Origin: Cylindrospermopsis raciborskii Cr2010
GTDB taxonomy: Bacteria > Cyanobacteriota > Cyanobacteriia > Cyanobacteriales > Nostocaceae
Assembly (NCBI RefSeq): GCF_003367075.2
Contig: NZ_CP065936.1
Coordinates: forward strand, 3,000,001 to 3,032,000
Direction of reading: 5' to 3'
Length of the DNA: 32,000 nucleotides
Part shown: in pieces, positions 17,017 through 27,907 of the stretch
Layout of the letters: each line of letters begins with the position of its first letter
How positions within the stretch are numbered: position 1 is the stretch's first letter
Program-made: the position numbers and the translations under genes
The notes under the pieces: model-generated
Databases searched by the model: none
Told to the model about the DNA's origin: nothing
Seen by the model: only the letters and a program-made list of their open reading frames with translations

Positions 17017-18246
17017 ATGTTGAGTTCAATAAGTACCTTAGATATGATGAATCAAAATAAAACTCCTCCTCGGATCCAATACCTTAAAATCGAAAACTTT
17101 CGGGCATTACGGAAAGTCGAGCTCAAAAACCTTACGCCCCTCACAGTCCTCCTAGGTCCCAATGGTAGCGGTAAATCTACCCTCTTTGATGTCTTTGCTT
17201 TCCTCTCTGAGTGCTTTGAACTAGGACTGCGTCGCGCCTGGGATAAACGTGGTAGAGCTAAAGAACTCAAAACTAGGGGCAGTGATGAGGCGATCGTCAT
17301 TGAGATTCAATATAAAGAACCCGACTATCCCACCATTACCTACCACCTAGCAGTGGACGAACGCAATGGCGCACCCTTTGTCAAGGAAGAATGGCTGAAA
17401 TGGCGACGAGGCAAACATGGTCAACCGTTTAATTTCCTAGACTACAAGGAGGGAAATGGAAAAGCAATCAGTGGTGAGCTACCCGATGAAAAAGACAAAC
17501 GCATTGAAATTCCTCTCAAATCCCCTGACCTGCTAGCTGTTAACGCCCTGGGTCAATTTGCTGAACATCCCCGCGTCGCCGCCCTACGAGACTTCATCAC
17601 CGGTTGGCACGTCTCCTATCTCTCCGCCGACAGTATCCGCACTCAACCTGAAGCAGGCCCCCAAGAACATCTAAACCGCAGCGGAGATAACCTTGCCAAC
17701 GTGATCCAATACTTAAATGAACAACATCGCGATCGCCTAGAAGCAATCTTTACAACTTTGCGGCGGCGAATCCCCCGCATTGAAAGGGTTTTGACTGAGT
17801 CTATGCCCGATGGTCGCCTACTCCTACAAATCAAAGATACTCCTTTTACCCACCCTATAATAGCACGCTTTGCTTCCGATGGCAGCTTAAAAATGCTGGC
17901 CTATTTGGTGCTGCTGCAAGATCCCGCTCCCCCTTCCTTTATTGGCATTGAAGAACCTGAAAACTATCTCCACCCCAGATTGCTCCCCGAACTCGCTGAG
18001 GAGTGCCAGCAGGCAACTGCTAGAACTCAAATGCTTGTCACCACCCACTCTCCCTTCTTCATCAATCAGCTTAAGCCTAAGCAAGTGCGAATTATCTATA
18101 GAGGAACTGATGGCTATACTCGAACACAACTTATTGAGGATATTCCAGGGATCAAGGAATTTATCCAACATGGAGCAAACTTAGGAGATTTGTGGATGGA
18201 GGGACATTTTGAAGTTGGCGATCCTTTAAATCAGGAGGGTATTTAA
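17017..18246 (+). CDS. ABC-type (AAA_21/AAA_15, OLD/SMC-like) ATPase
   Basis: [12 protein letters not shown] followed by Walker [10 protein letters not shown]; Walker B-like [14 protein letters not shown]; H-loop LVTTHSPFF. The true start is more likely the ATG at 17044 or 17047 (MMNQNK...). Confidence 0.85.
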
Positions 18247-18878
18247 TGCCCAAAACAAATAGTTTTTGCATCGAGGTTTTAGTAGAAGAACCTTCTGCTG
18301 AAGAAGCCCTCAAAACCCTTTTGCCAAAATTACTCAAGGGGCGATCTCGCCATAAAATCATTAATTTTGGGAGTAAATCAAAACTACTTAAGTTACTGAG
18401 CCAACGTTTATCTGCCTATGGCGATCGCATCAGCAAAGGAGAAAACGTACGGATTATTGTATTAGTGGATCAAGACAATGATGATTGTAAGAAATTAAAA
18501 AATCAATTAGAGGGAATTGCTCAACAAACAGGATTATCCACCAAATCTAAACCAGATTCTGAAGGAAGATTTGTAGTTCTCAATCGGATTGTGATCAAAG
18601 AACTAGAATCTTGGTTTATTGGAGATACAGAGGCTTTGCGTAAAGCTTTCTCCAGCTTGCCGAGTATATCACCTAAATCAGGAATCTTTCGCAGTCCCGA
18701 TAATGGGGGTAGTTGGGAGGCTCTACATCGGTTCTTAAAAAAACATGGCATTTATAAAAACGGCTACCCCAAAATAGAAGCGGCCCGCCGCATTTCTCTC
18801 CATATGAACCCAGATCAAAATTACTCTCCAAGTTTTAACTGCTTTAAAGCTGGAATAGAAGCCTTCCTATCTCAATAA
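18246..18878 (+). CDS. DUF4276-like small protein with a Toprim-like catalytic residue pattern
   Basis: Start ATG overlaps the ATPase stop (TAATG). First strand IEVLVEEPSAEE (conserved Glu), VLVDQDNDD (DxD), KELESWF. 210 aa. The family assignment is from memory of the DUF4276 pattern and was not searched. Confidence 0.65.
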   Translation: MPKTNSFCIEVLVEEPSAEEALKTLLPKLLKGRSRHKIINFGSKSKLLKLLSQRLSAYGDRISKGENVRIIVLVDQDNDDCKKLKNQLEGIAQQTGLSTKSKPDSEGRFVVLNRIVIKELESWFIGDTEALRKAFSSLPSISPKSGIFRSPDNGGSWEALHRFLKKHGIYKNGYPKIEAARRISLHMNPDQNYSPSFNCFKAGIEAFLSQ

Positions 18879-20798: not shown

Positions 20799-21047
20799 TT
20801 ACTTTGCGATAAATGTTTCTACTTGTTTCTTAGCTTCATAACGGTTGCTAACAATTGGTACTTCTTGACGCAGTTGAGTAAAATACTCATTAGGACGAGG
20901 CGTACCAAATATATCATAAGCTAGACCTGTGCTGACAAACAACCACCCAGCGACAAATAAAGCGGGTATGGTGATGCTATGAATTACCCAGTAACGAATA
21001 CTGGTTACAATGTCCGAAAATGGACGTTCTCCAGTGGTACCTGACAT
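20799..21047 (-). CDS. psbE: Cytochrome b559 alpha subunit
   Basis: [31 protein letters not shown]...; canonical PsbE and first gene of psbEFLJ. Confidence 0.95.
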
Positions 21048-21200: not shown

Positions 21201-21537
21201 TTACTTAGCTTTACTAGCTTGCTCCATAGCTGCTTGAGATGCAGCAGTGCTACCCATACGAATTTCGGAAGTAAAGGAAGCCATACTAAAACCCCCAAAA
21301 CGTTTAAGTACTCCCACACGCATCCGTAAATTAGGACTAGCAAACCATAGTCGTTCTTCTGAGGACATGGTTTCATACTCTGTGATCAGAGTTAATGCAC
21401 CATCGTTACCCATCTTATAGGTTCCAGCTACTGGCATTTTTTCTGCATAACCCATTTCCCTCAATAGTTTACCTTCACCTGGTTTAAGTAAGTCGGGTAC
21501 AGTGACTAAAACTGTAGAACCTTCATGTTTTGGTTGA
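21201..21537 (-). CDS. cpcS: CpcS/CpeS-type phycobiliprotein (phycocyanobilin) lyase, exon 2
   Basis: The frame is open upstream of the tracked ORF back to the intron. ...[95 protein letters not shown] matches the C-terminal two-thirds of CpcS. The exact 3' splice site is uncertain by multiples of 3 nt (21537 preferred, 21540 possible). Confidence 0.8.
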
Positions 21538-21574
21538 GTCGATGGAGGGTATTATCCTTCGCACCTCTCGTTTA

Positions 21575-21608
21575 AATCTGGGCGTGCGATTTTCACCGCA
21601 CCCAGCTT
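21575..21608 (-). ncRNA. Group II intron domain V
   Basis: AAGCUGGGUGCGGUGAAAAUCGCACGCCCAGAUU aligns position-for-position with the consensus GAGCCGUAUGCGAUGAAAGUCGCACGUACGGUUC: AGC triad, GAAA loop, AC bulge, 34 nt. Confidence 0.85.
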
Positions 21609-21617
21609 CCGATGTTC

Positions 21618-22718
21618 TTAGCTATAGCTTTTGCCTGGAGTGTTAGAAAGGGTAGAGTTTTGACCAGAGTTCACTCGTGGAAACGCCTTATTTATCAGTT
21701 GCTGAATGATTTGTCGGTTTTGTTTTGTTTCCCGATTAAACACCTTGAAAGCTCTGTATTTTATATGGTAGAGGGAAAATCTCGCCCCATCCATGTTGCA
21801 ATGGCGATGGTAATTTCTCCACTCCCCTACGATCAAGCTCAATTTCTGTGCCTTGATAGTAGCTCCATAATTCGAGTTGTTGACTATGTGTTTCACTTTC
21901 TGGCGAAAAGCTTGGAAGTCTTTTAGTCCGGGGACACATCTTAACTTTCCGTTTTTTTGCACTTGAAAATGCCAAGTGAGAAAATCAAACCCATCTGTCG
22001 CTGCAATTAGTTCAGTTTCTTCCGTAGCTAGTTCTATTCCATCTTTTGCCAGGGAGTGACGAATAGTGTCAAGTATTGTTTCTGGGTGATCCTGAGGTTG
22101 GAGGATAATCACTATTTCCCTCCCATACCAAACTAGTTTTCCTATATTTTCTATTTCCTTGAGGAAAATATTAGCCAGTAAGGAGGTTATCAGTTCCGAT
22201 TTCTCCACAGAAAGACATTGTGACCTAATCCCCCGTTTGATTTCTACAGGAGCTATTAGTCTTTTACAAATCGCTCTTGGGTTGATTTTTTCTAGAGATT
22301 TCCCCAAATCAATTTTGATTACTCTTGTTTGATGACCAGGAATTTCCGATAAATATACTTGTAACATTCTTTGTGCATCCTGGGGGGAAAATCCCCGTTT
22401 CCATCCATAACCGTGGAGGTGGAAATTACCTTCATGGGCTGGATCTAAGGTGTATTTAATTACCCACTGCCATACCCGCTGTCTAGTGGTGGAAGATAAA
22501 ACCTCTGTAAGAGAATTTGCTTGTAATACTTGACGAATAGCCAGTAATTGTGCTGACGTAGATTTTAAGATTAGCTTTTGAAGAGACTTAGCCTTGCGCA
22601 GGTCTCCAACTCGAACGGCTTTGTACACTCGTTTTTGCAAGCGGAAGAGATTGCGGCGAAATTGTCGCCAGGGTAACCTCTGCCAAGATTCACTAACATT
22701 TCTGTTGTGTCTAATCAT
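21618..22718 (-). CDS. Group II intron-encoded protein with a degenerate RT domain (maturase-only type)
   Basis: RT-0 block WQRLPWRQFRRNLFRLQKRVYKA...SLQKLILKS...AIRQV; SYGFRPGRS-like HGYGWKRGFS; ISPLLANI-like ITSLLANIFL; YADD position reads VWYGREIVII; GFDFLTWHF; domain X (WRNYHRHCN...). Only 366 aa, with no D/En domain. GGAG ~10 nt before the ATG. Confidence 0.85.
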   Translation of the reverse strand: MIRHNRNVSESWQRLPWRQFRRNLFRLQKRVYKAVRVGDLRKAKSLQKLILKSTSAQLLAIRQVLQANSLTEVLSSTTRQRVWQWVIKYTLDPAHEGNFHLHGYGWKRGFSPQDAQRMLQVYLSEIPGHQTRVIKIDLGKSLEKINPRAICKRLIAPVEIKRGIRSQCLSVEKSELITSLLANIFLKEIENIGKLVWYGREIVIILQPQDHPETILDTIRHSLAKDGIELATEETELIAATDGFDFLTWHFQVQKNGKLRCVPGLKDFQAFRQKVKHIVNNSNYGATIKAQKLSLIVGEWRNYHRHCNMDGARFSLYHIKYRAFKVFNRETKQNRQIIQQLINKAFPRVNSGQNSTLSNTPGKSYS

Positions 22719-23275
22719 ACTTTAACTCCAACTTGTGTATTCTGAACACCTCCGACCAATTACGGTCAGTCCTACCCGAAGTGAGGGAATTTTGCTTCTC
22801 GTCAAGCCTACTTGGGTTTTGACCTTCCCTAGACCCTCAATTCGTTTTTATTCGTTCCCCCGGTTAGATTGTTAGTTTCCTTAGGTGTAGTCAATTCAAC
22901 TACTGGTTTCCCAAGACTCTTACCGCTAATCCAAGAAAATGCGGCGGGAAATATATCCAGTCCAGTCGGGTTTTAATGTTGTGTCCCGCTTATGGGTAAG
23001 TTGCTTTTTTAGACTCTATTTCACCGTAGAAACACCCCATTAGCACCAGTGTCATCCCACAACGGATGTCTGATTGCACCCTGTTCCCAGCTTCACCCTC
23101 CAGTTACCGAGTCTGGTCAGTGTGGGCAGATCGGGAGTCACACCTGAGTCTGGCGGATGGGACTTTCACCCATATCCAACTGAGAGTTCAACCTTCATCT
23201 ACTTGTTTATTACTAGTTGAGGTTGGTGAGGTTATTACGGATTAGTTACCGATGTTGACCCACAACGAATCGCAC

Positions 23276-23511
23276 TCTTGGTCCCATTCCATGGTTCCTT
23301 TCCAGGTGACTCTTGCTCCACAGGAAGCTGCATCGGGAAGAATGGAATACTGTTCACACAGTTTAATTACTTCTGGATGGTCTACTGTGAGCATGTCAAT
23401 TACGATGTCTGATTTACCATCTTCTGACTGTTTAAAGGCTAAATGGTGGCTAGTACGGTGGGAAAACCACTTTCCAGCACTTAATTCGAAAAACTCTTCC
23501 ACATTCATCAA
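23276..23511 (-). CDS. cpcS: CpcS/CpeS-type phycobiliprotein lyase, exon 1
   Basis: [78 protein letters not shown] is the conserved CpcS N-terminus. The tracked ORF reads on into the intron (from the GAG codon completed by the first G of GTGCG) and stops 11 codons after that split codon. Confidence 0.85.
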
Positions 23512-26182: not shown

Positions 26183-27907
26183 ATGAGTTCTGGAAATCCA
26201 TTAGGTTCGGTTATTAGAGGTTCTTTAACCAAGGGGTTAGAGATCAGATTACACTCTGATGTCTCCGTAGAAGATATGCGTGTTGGTAAATTTCTGGTCA
26301 TCCAAGGTGTCCGTTCTCGTTTCTTTTGCATGGTGACCGATGTTGCCCTAGGAACGGCAAATGAACGGATTATAGCCAGTCCTCCCAATTGGGAAGATAC
26401 TTTTTTAAGGGAGGTTTTGGCTGGTAGCAGTACCTATGGTATCGTCACCTTGGCACCAATGCTCATGTTTACACCAGAAGATACGGAGCATACTTTTAAC
26501 GGTAAATCTGCCCAGAGTTCAGCATTTTCTGGGAATGGTTTGGCATCTTTTCAGCCTCAAACCGCAACCACAATGGAACTGCTACCGGTAAAAACCATAC
26601 CTACTCACTTTAGTCAGGTTTACGAAGCTGAGGAATATGATTTTCGCAAAGTTTTTGGATGGGAAGACGATCAGCAGCGCAAAAACTTCTCTATTGGTAA
26701 ACCCTTGGATATGGATGTGCCAGTTTGTATTGACTTAAATCGGTTTGTAGAAAGGAGTAATGGGGTTTTTGGTAAATCTGGAACTGGTAAATCCTTTCTC
26801 ACCCGGTTACTTTTAGCTGGTGTTATCCGTAAAAATGCTGCTGTTAACCTAATTTTTGATATGCACTCCGAATATGGTTGGGAAGCGGTAGCAGAGGGTA
26901 AAGAAGTAAGCACGGTCAAAGGTCTCAAACAACTATTTCCTGACAAGGTAGAAGTTTACACCTTAGATCCGGAAGCGACTAAGCGAAGAGGTGTTAGGGA
27001 CGCACAGGAGCTATATCTCAATTACGAGCAAATAGAAGTAGAAGATCTGAAACTTTGTGCCAATGAGTTAGGAGTTAGTGATGCTTCAATGGATAGTGCT
27101 AGCATTCTATATAAACAGTTAGGTGACCGTTGGATTCCCGAATTGCTGGGAATGACAGGGGATGACATCAAATTGTTTTGCGATGAAAATCCTGGTCATG
27201 TGGGGTCAATTGCAGCTTTGCAGCGCAAACTAATGCGACTTGAGAACCTGAAATATATACGAAACGCACGTAAAGATAACTATATTAAGAAAATAGTGCA
27301 ATCTTTGGAAGCTGGGAAAAATGTGGTGATAGAATTTGGAACACAGTCAAACATGCTATCATATATGCTGGTAACCAACATGATTACCAGACGTATACAT
27401 GATCACTATGTTACCAAAGCGGACAAATTTTTGCACACCAAGAATCCGCTGGATAAGCCAACACCACTAATGATTACAATAGAAGAAGCCCATAGGTTTC
27501 TTGATTCCGCAGTAGTTCAAAGTACCATATTTGGCACCATCGCTAGGGAGTTGAGGAAGTATTTTGTCACCCTTTTGGTGGTTGATCAGCGCCCATCGGG
27601 AATAGATAATGAAATCATGTCCCAGATTGGCACCCGGATTACAGCTTTGCTAAACGACGAAAAGGATATTGAGGCGATTTTTACCGGGGTGTCGGGTGGT
27701 AGTGTCCTACGTTCAGTATTAGCGAAGCTGGACTCTAAGCAGCAAGCCCTAATCCTAGGTCATGCTGTGCCGATGCCTGTAGTAATACGTACTCGGGCAT
27801 ACGATGGAGTGTTTTATAAAGAGATTGGCGATGTAGATTGGCAAGAGATGTCGGATGTAGAGGTTTTTGCTGCTGCCAAGCTGGCTAAAGCAGATTTGGG
27901 TTTTTAG
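26183..27907 (+). CDS. HerA-like (DUF87, FtsK/HerA superfamily) P-loop ATPase
   Basis: N-terminal HAS-barrel-like region (VGKFLVIQGVRSRFFCMVTDV), Walker A GKSGTGKS, Walker B MITIEEAHRFL, LLVVDQRPSGID, ALILGHAVPMP. Confidence 0.8.
   Translation: MSSGNPLGSVIRGSLTKGLEIRLHSDVSVEDMRVGKFLVIQGVRSRFFCMVTDVALGTANERIIASPPNWEDTFLREVLAGSSTYGIVTLAPMLMFTPEDTEHTFNGKSAQSSAFSGNGLASFQPQTATTMELLPVKTIPTHFSQVYEAEEYDFRKVFGWEDDQQRKNFSIGKPLDMDVPVCIDLNRFVERSNGVFGKSGTGKSFLTRLLLAGVIRKNAAVNLIFDMHSEYGWEAVAEGKEVSTVKGLKQLFPDKVEVYTLDPEATKRRGVRDAQELYLNYEQIEVEDLKLCANELGVSDASMDSASILYKQLGDRWIPELLGMTGDDIKLFCDENPGHVGSIAALQRKLMRLENLKYIRNARKDNYIKKIVQSLEAGKNVVIEFGTQSNMLSYMLVTNMITRRIHDHYVTKADKFLHTKNPLDKPTPLMITIEEAHRFLDSAVVQSTIFGTIARELRKYFVTLLVVDQRPSGIDNEIMSQIGTRITALLNDEKDIEAIFTGVSGGSVLRSVLAKLDSKQQALILGHAVPMPVVIRTRAYDGVFYKEIGDVDWQEMSDVEVFAAAKLAKADLGF

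Follow-up and report, generated by a model that had tools for sequence, protein, structure and literature searches.

A group II intron interrupts cpcS, the gene for a CpcS-III type phycobilin lyase, in the cyanobacterium Cylindrospermopsis raciborskii Cr2010, and the protein encoded within this intron is probably a maturase that has lost reverse transcriptase (RT) function and is retained for the splicing of its own intron, a reading to which we assign a probability of roughly 75%. The intron was analysed in a stretch of 32,000 nucleotides (nt) from contig NZ_CP065936.1 (assembly GCF_003367075.2, positions 3,000,001 to 3,032,000), hereafter the window; coordinates are window positions on the minus strand unless (+) is given. 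A sequence-only reading of the window had described the open reading frame (ORF) at 21618..22718, which encodes 366 amino acids, as a group II intron protein that can no longer support RT catalysis or retromobility and is retained rather than decaying, and the analysis supports each of these points. The ORF lies on the minus strand, matches Pfam RVT_N and is followed directly by intron domains V and VI. As far as can be judged from sequence, a frame kept open under selection, a lost RT active site, a retained X domain, descent from intron proteins and a location in domain IV together fit the degenerate splicing-only proteins, such as MatK, MatR and O.i.I2, and our best inference is that the protein is now kept only for splicing.

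Loss and retention of domains in the intron-encoded protein

The degenerate ORF is situated inside domain IV of the intron, and an identical 366-residue protein is present in NCBI as a Cylindrospermopsis 'reverse transcriptase N-terminal domain-containing protein'. The protein was compared block by block in an alignment with 117 full-length cyanobacterial relatives of approximately 503 amino acids. RT-0 and the N-terminal extension (amino acids 1-69; 22512..22718; Pfam RVT_N, 2.4e-17) exhibit 78% identity to the family consensus and possess 37 of 40 highly conserved positions, in agreement with the sequence-only reading, which had called this block well preserved. The fingers and palm are present only as a remnant (amino acids 70-235; 22014..22511) with 42% identity to the consensus. 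Deletions of 20 and 28 amino acids, at residues 69/70 and 75/76, take out RT-1 and the first half of RT-2 (GKKTAGVDG... and ...REIPIPKKDGKTRILKV). RT-1 and RT-2 had initially been taken to be missing altogether, but the second half of RT-2, together with RT-2a, can still be aligned, with the conserved DR lost. RT-3 retains its aspartate, D137, and has lost the F..D..H that follows it. In RT-4, a deletion of 10 amino acids at residues 175/176 removes FPEQGTPQGG, bearing out the observation that the GTPQGG block could not be recognised. The SVRYADDMVIIL of relatives has become LVWYGREIVIIL in the window protein, and the family alignment confirms that the former YADD catalytic box (22116..22127) now reads YGRE. 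The RT-6 segment KKTKLT has become EETELI, in which lysines are now glutamates.

RT-7 (TDGFDFLTWHFQV; 21960..21998) is preserved, as is the X/thumb, or maturase, domain (amino acids 254-335; 21714..21959; Pfam GIIM, 4.6e-4), which includes the hallmark GEWRNYHRHC and can be aligned to the thumb of the T.el4h protein of Thermosynechococcus. The thumb/X region had been described as intact, which is correct for X itself, whereas the GFDFLTWHF that had been assigned to it belongs to RT-7 and hence to the palm. Amino acids 236-335, comprising RT-7 and X, exhibit 75% identity to the family consensus and possess 53 of 65 conserved positions. The C-terminus consists of a short divergent tail (21621..21713) in place of the DNA-binding/HNH endonuclease (D/En) region of relatives, whose last approximately 80 residues, HNH motifs included, have no counterpart in the window protein; this domain had been correctly recorded as absent.

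Of the family positions conserved at 90% or more, 93% are kept in RT-0, 82% in X and 49% in the RT remnant, and RT-0 and X together keep 86%, against the 49% of the remnant (Fisher p=4e-9). On this count, the RNA-binding parts of the protein have been preferentially preserved. Polymerase and endonuclease capacity, by contrast, is lost on the evidence of the alignment, because two of the three catalytic aspartates, RT-1, the dNTP/template motifs of RT-4 and the whole D/En region are gone, even though the RT-3 aspartate is present. The match to Pfam RVT_1 reaches 13.4 bits against a cut-off of 29.6, and the match to TIGR04416, the equivalog model for group II RT/maturases, reaches 86 bits against a cut-off of 300, placing the protein outside the active retroelements.

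Distribution of the shortened ORF and selection on its sequence

The shortened ORF is present at the same cpcS site in Cylindrospermopsis and Raphidiopsis strains, where approximately 60 orthologous sequences fall into three 90% clusters; these derive from C. raciborskii (including CS-505), C. curvispora, R. brookii (D9) and R. curvata (NIES-932). In the 33 distinct sequences that were read, no premature stop or truncated allele was found: all except contig-end fragments and unrelated short peptides are open at 366-375 amino acids or, following loss of the stop codon, at 405 amino acids. Two short orthologues of 216 and 236 amino acids (P0146 and P0147) were considered as decayed alleles and rejected, as both end at contig ends. 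The YADD-box position varies among orthologues, reading YGRE in the window, YERE in P0001 and YGSE in R. brookii D9, and the RT-3 aspartate is a glycine in one allele; in sequence terms, this variation fits an absence of selection on catalysis.

In one Raphidiopsis-like lineage (L002 270..1487, P0003; P0153), the stop codon of the intron protein is lost (TAA to CAC or CAG) and the frame reads through into domain V to give a form of 405 amino acids. This lineage also possesses an eight-residue segment, GILRCVKT, that is deleted in the window protein, suggesting that reduction was stepwise; the steps that can be traced between lineages comprise a 24-nt deletion, which is absent in some, a 27-nt indel in the tail and the loss of the stop. 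A further allele (L022 484..1608, P0152) is window-like at both ends and L002-like in the middle, where it carries the 24-nt segment, and this mosaic is due either to lineages having recombined or to a chimera in the metagenome assembly.

A codon comparison of eight orthologous DNA sequences yielded 79 synonymous changes over 240 sites and 96 non-synonymous changes over 858 sites in the intron-protein ORF, corresponding to a ratio of non-synonymous to synonymous rates (dN/dS, or omega) of approximately 0.34 (p=7e-12 against neutrality). By domain, the ratio is 0.24 in RT-0, 0.38 in the RT remnant (p=1.4e-6) and 0.26 in X, where the figure covers amino acids 236-335 and thus includes RT-7, and all of these differ significantly from 1. 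The comparison of X with the RT remnant had been suggested alongside the sequence-only reading, and both prove to be significantly below 1. No nonsense changes were seen, against approximately 18 expected at the observed synonymous rate (P~1e-8), and all three indels in the ORF, of 24, 6 and 27 nt, are in frame, the last of them in the C-terminal tail. It had been pointed out that ORFs full of frameshifts in related strains would indicate simple decay; frameshifts were looked for among the orthologues, and every indel preserves the frame. Synonymous divergence is low across the first approximately 200 nt of the ORF (22512..22718), with dS of 0.02-0.09 against about 0.2 elsewhere, a difference that involves small numbers and may stem from a constraint on the domain IV RNA that overlaps the ORF.

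Structure and conservation of the intron RNA

The intron comprises 1744 nt (21532..23275) and extends from a 5' GUGCG (23271..23275) to a 3' ...CGACUCAACC. Similarity to the introns of full-length relatives begins exactly at 23275 and stops at 21532, and the 3' ...GACUCAACC is common to these relatives. The Rfam model Intron_gpII (RF00029), which covers domains V and VI, matches 21533..21610, directly downstream of the ORF, with 48.5 bits against a gathering threshold of 40. The end of this model, at 21533, was considered as the 3' end of the intron and rejected, because in combination with GUGCG it breaks the cpcS frame, whereas both the relatives and the CpcS alignment lead to 21532. In the Rfam alignment, domain V (21575..21608) possesses an AGC triad and a 2-nt bulge and is capped by a GAAA loop. 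In domain VI (21532..21569), the branch point is a bulged A at 21539, which lies 8 nt from the 3' splice site, and the distal stem (21540..21569) covaries with relatives. This stem contains one A·C mismatch (GAAGG/CCUCC) where mobile relatives form five clean pairs (GGGAG/CUCCC), and the remaining changes are compensatory.

The loops that hold the exon-binding sites (EBS) were found by aligning the window intron with eight related introns (nine in all), in which conserved flanks surround the loops. EBS2 (CCCAU; 22992..22996) lies in a hypervariable loop and is complementary to the intron-binding site IBS2 (AUGGG; 23283..23287), and EBS1 (UCUUGG; 22931..22936) lies in a hypervariable hairpin loop and is complementary to IBS1 (CCAAGA; 23276..23281), so that the two loops pair with the last 12 nt of cpcS exon 1 (AUGGG-A-CCAAGA). 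In the related intron L005, the corresponding loops, CUCCC and AUUGGA, match its own exon, GGGAG and UCCAAU. Two further candidates were rejected, namely UCCCAU at 23157..23162 as EBS2, which sits in a conserved stem, and a second UCUUGG at 22911..22916 as EBS1, which sits in a conserved segment.

A stem-loop, CUGACC-GUAAUU-GGUCGG (22752..22769), is located approximately 35 nt upstream of the ORF start. Its loop is invariant in relatives and its stem covaries (CAGACC/GGUCUG, CAGUCC/GGACUG and CGAACC/GGUUCG), and the hairpin is the probable domain IVa, the predicted binding site of the intron protein. A Shine-Dalgarno sequence, GGAG (22726..22729), is also present upstream of the ORF. Among orthologues, variable columns make up 2.5% of the 5' part of the ribozyme, compared with 18% of the spacer between cpcS and psbE and approximately 26-28% of third codon positions. 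The intron therefore combines the features expected of a group II ribozyme, with a GUGYG start, the triad and bulge of domain V, the bulged A of domain VI and EBS/IBS pairing, and these comparisons show a ribozyme that is, by its primary structure, intact and strongly constrained and that occupies a proper homing-type site in an important gene. The intron is a putative member of the chloroplast-like (CL)/IIB class, as suggested indirectly by its cyanobacterial relatives and by T.el4h as the best match.

The interrupted cpcS gene and its surroundings

Exon 1 of cpcS (23276..23508) ends in ...GAC CAA GA and exon 2 (21201..21531) begins with A AAA CAT GAA. Splicing in silico, with the exons joined at 23276/21531, removes the intron exactly and restores the reading frame, giving a protein of 188 amino acids with a Pfam CpeS match of 9.4e-72. 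The spliced protein aligns without gaps over the junction to CpcS from T. elongatus (3BDR), with MEWDQEKHEGS in the former and MEWDNEKHEGS in the latter, and CpcS from Dolichospermum, which lacks the intron, reads MEWDEEKHEGS at this position. Downstream of the split gene, on the same strand, lies psbEFLJ, with psbE at 20799..21047, and upstream lies a HEAT-repeat PBS-lyase-like gene. The order cpcS exon 1, intron, cpcS exon 2 and psbEFLJ is common to every orthologous contig examined.

Two of the ORFs in this region are products of the interruption: one of 89 amino acids (23242..23511) is exon 1 read into the intron, and one of 87 amino acids (21201..21464) is part of exon 2, and public annotations show these two pieces of cpcS as separate CpeS-domain genes. 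An ORF of 104 amino acids antisense to the intron protein (21612..21926, +) is probably spurious.

Sister genera were searched for this intron by means of the peptide encoded by exon 1, and none of the 11 proteins retrieved has it. A CpcS fragment of 77 amino acids ending in ...MEWDE (P0156) was considered as the same intron site in another genus and rejected, since its contig lacks the intron and has a TAA in frame. On a metagenome contig of the European Nucleotide Archive (ENA; L024 430..445), an unrelated cyanobacterial cpcS has TAA in place of GAA at the codon of the intron site (...GAT GAA TAA AAA CAC...), which splits the intronless gene into ORFs of 77 and 102 amino acids. The 77-residue product is common to L023, L024 and L025; the TAA was read in L024 only, and the genes in L023 and L025 stop at the contig end.

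Elsewhere in the window, two adjoining, overlapping genes (17017..18878, +) encode an AAA_21/AAA_15 ATPase of 409 amino acids and a DUF4276 protein of 210 amino acids, in a layout like that of two-gene defence or toxin-antitoxin-like modules, and a gene at 26183..27907 (+) encodes a HerA-type helicase with a HAS barrel and DUF87.

A proposed mechanism and its alternatives

We propose that a group II intron of the putative chloroplast-like class entered cpcS before the diversification of Cylindrospermopsis/Raphidiopsis and later became immobile. The parts left in its protein are RT-0, a reduced fingers/palm scaffold, RT-7 and X/thumb, and in solved group II ribonucleoproteins (RNPs) it is through surfaces formed by these parts that domain IVa and the catalytic core of the intron RNA are held. 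Made from its own Shine-Dalgarno sequence and ATG within domain IV, the protein would bind the upstream hairpin and the core and stabilise the active fold of the ribozyme, and the cpcS pre-mRNA would thereby be spliced in cis. CpcS is needed for the attachment of phycocyanobilin to phycobiliproteins, and for this reason the loss of either the ribozyme or its helper protein would be costly, which would account for the purifying selection seen on both. The intron itself would stay, since CpcS function would be lost if the intron were removed imprecisely or failed to splice. A broader claim, with odds somewhat better than even, is that this free-living cyanobacterial genus has carried a fixed, obligate and RT-dead maturase acting in cis for as long as it has been diversifying, an early, stepwise bacterial counterpart of MatK.

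Several points weigh against the protein as a dedicated splicing factor. The omega of the ORF exceeds that of the host exons and psbE, where dN/dS is 0.09-0.16, by a factor of two to four, indicating relaxed constraint. The Pfam GIIM match that marks the X domain, at 20.6 bits, is slightly below the cut-off of 23. Binding of domain IVa by the lactococcal protein LtrA involves RT-1 and RT-2, and given the deletion of these blocks here, high-affinity binding may be different or weakened. Splicing may also be helped in trans by another intron protein, intact and encoded at a different locus of the genome. In favour of the maturase reading, an AlphaFold (AF2) model of the protein (predicted local distance difference test score, pLDDT, 74; predicted template modelling score, pTM, 0.67) has the T.el4h maturase in its RNP (6ME0_C) as its best PDB match, with a template modelling (TM) score of 0.66, and suggests a fold still of the group II maturase type, but the input alignment consisted mostly of full-length RTs and both the model and the match may be biased to their fold.

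Relaxed constraint would also be expected if the ORF were a decaying relic that is not yet broken, inside a ribozyme that self-splices or receives help from a host factor or an intact intron protein elsewhere. The protein sits on a long branch, with 55% identity to relatives compared with 83% among relatives, and the loss is concentrated in the RT remnant; the same genome may, moreover, encode further intron proteins. Decay is nevertheless quite improbable, given that the expected nonsense changes are entirely missing across a clade with dS of about 0.15-0.25, that omega is significantly below 1 in every domain, that all indels are in frame and that the short alleles are contig-end artefacts. 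Purifying selection tells that the protein matters but not why, and RT-derived proteins have been recruited elsewhere, as with G2L5, which is said to be without RT activity (PMC2602772). The protein could accordingly be kept for a job other than splicing, either as an RNA-binding regulator of cpcS/psbEFLJ or as an exapted RT-like protein of the kind seen in free-standing group II-like (G2L) proteins; this is improbable, however, as the gene lies inside domain IV of its own intron in every genome examined, the best-conserved parts are those for intron RNA binding, and the upstream hairpin and ribozyme are conserved alongside the protein.

Two other explanations appear very improbable. The high conservation of the first approximately 200 nt of the ORF, even at synonymous sites, could mean that the frame is conserved by an RNA-level constraint on domain IV and not by selection on a protein, but such a constraint would neither spare third codon positions nor keep every indel in frame, and it is already disfavoured by a per-site rate of synonymous changes approximately three times that of non-synonymous changes over the whole ORF. 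The intron might, alternatively, still be mobile, with cDNA synthesised in trans by another reverse transcriptase, since some T. elongatus intron proteins mobilise ORF-less relatives (PMC2882425). All copies found, however, are at the single cpcS site, and a second copy of the shortened ORF was not found by a protein search, cluster look-ups or a scan of one species-representative genome. No close intact sibling of the protein was found among 5.8 billion proteins, the best full-length match being only about 50% identical.

Relationship to known introns and maturases

The cpcS intron and the concept of an RT-dead maturase are already known, and O.i.I2 is a bacterial precedent for the latter. 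The CyanoLyase paper of 2012 noted a bacterial group II intron interrupting CpcS-III in both C. raciborskii CS-505 and R. brookii D9 and did not discuss the encoded protein (PMC3531064). This remark was the only one found in the literature on Cylindrospermopsis/Raphidiopsis and a group II intron or maturase, the degeneration of the protein being undescribed in the searchable literature, and the supplements of a prokaryote-wide intron census mention neither genus. Zimmerly and Semper, in a review from 2015, describe RT-dead degenerate intron proteins as common in organelles (MatK, nad1I4 and psbCI4) and rare in bacteria, where O.i.I2 is 'the only known example', and argue that such derivatives do not persist in bacteria; it is accepted that proteins of this kind act as maturases where they retain X, both in organelles and in the case of O.i.I2 (PMC4424553). 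Within the searchable literature, the cpcS intron protein is the first cyanobacterial case of a kind that is rare in bacteria.

O.i.I2, a group II intron of Oceanobacillus iheyensis, likewise interrupts a bacterial host gene, in this instance radC, and encodes a stop-free protein without YADD and other RT motifs that has been read as a retained maturase (PMC4424553). It differs in being a mitochondria-like (ML) class intron from a single genome of Firmicutes, for which population or selection evidence was not found, whereas the cpcS case is cyanobacterial and genus-wide, with omega measured and indels in frame. Evolutionary support is thus better for the cpcS case than for this precedent.

MatK, encoded in the plastid trnK intron, and MatR/nMAT of plant mitochondria are also intron-derived, have lost RT motifs or the active site, keep domain X and act as splicing factors for introns in essential genes, but they are organellar or nuclear. 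The parallel with MatK/nMat that had been drawn from the sequence alone is a fair one in functional terms, although O.i.I2 had already provided a precedent in bacteria. No match to the Pfam MatK families (MatK_N and Intron_maturas2) was present in the Pfam scan of the intron protein at E<=1, and membership of the MatK sequence family was rejected on this basis. MatK can be aligned only over RT-5 to RT-7 and X, lacks RT-0 and serves several introns, whereas the cpcS intron protein keeps RT-0, RT-3 and RT-7 and apparently serves one intron in cis.

The closest relatives are full-length cyanobacterial HNH intron proteins, for example those of Nostoc, Nodularia and Scytonema (about 503 amino acids; P0005-P0120), which exhibit 48-50% identity over 97% of the query. 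Their introns exhibit 75-80% RNA identity in domains I-III and share the 5' GUGCGAUUCG and the 3' end, but the proteins possess complete RT-1 to RT-7, YADD and D/En, and the introns occupy many sites, as mobile elements do. The T.el4h intron, whose protein is the best structural match, is likewise a cyanobacterial intron in an essential gene, in this instance for a tRNA, and the native active site of its protein is weakened (YAGD), which lowers mobility (PMC2882425). All RT blocks are present in T.el4h, however, and a single change restores full mobility, whereas the losses in the cpcS intron protein are irreversible deletions. G2L5 proteins resemble the cpcS intron protein in being bacterial, RT-derived and reported to lack RT activity (PMC2602772), but they are encoded by free-standing genes outside any intron.

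Implications

Models of how organellar and spliceosomal introns originated include, as a central step, the conversion of a selfish retroelement into a fixed intron that depends on its host and has a splicing protein dedicated to it. The well-studied examples of this step (MatK, MatR and nMAT) are ancient, belong to organelles and are difficult to manipulate. The cpcS intron constitutes a second bacterial case, which persists across a genus of culturable, genome-rich cyanobacteria and offers a natural allelic series together with close mobile relatives for comparison. With it, one can examine how much of an intron protein is sufficient for maturase activity, whether domain IVa can be bound without RT-1/RT-2, and whether selection on a host gene alone can stabilise a bacterial intron. 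The finding is also of value for annotation, as dozens of genomes list cpcS as two fragments and the intron protein as a 'reverse transcriptase N-terminal domain protein'.

RT-dead maturases are routine in chloroplasts and have rarely been reported in bacteria, and the host here is the bloom-forming cyanobacterium Cylindrospermopsis/Raphidiopsis. If the intron protein is indeed a maturase retained for splicing, the intron would be permanently domesticated and immobile, its splicing could gate CpcS supply and phycobilisome assembly, and the phylum ancestral to plastids would have given rise to a bacterial counterpart of MatK.

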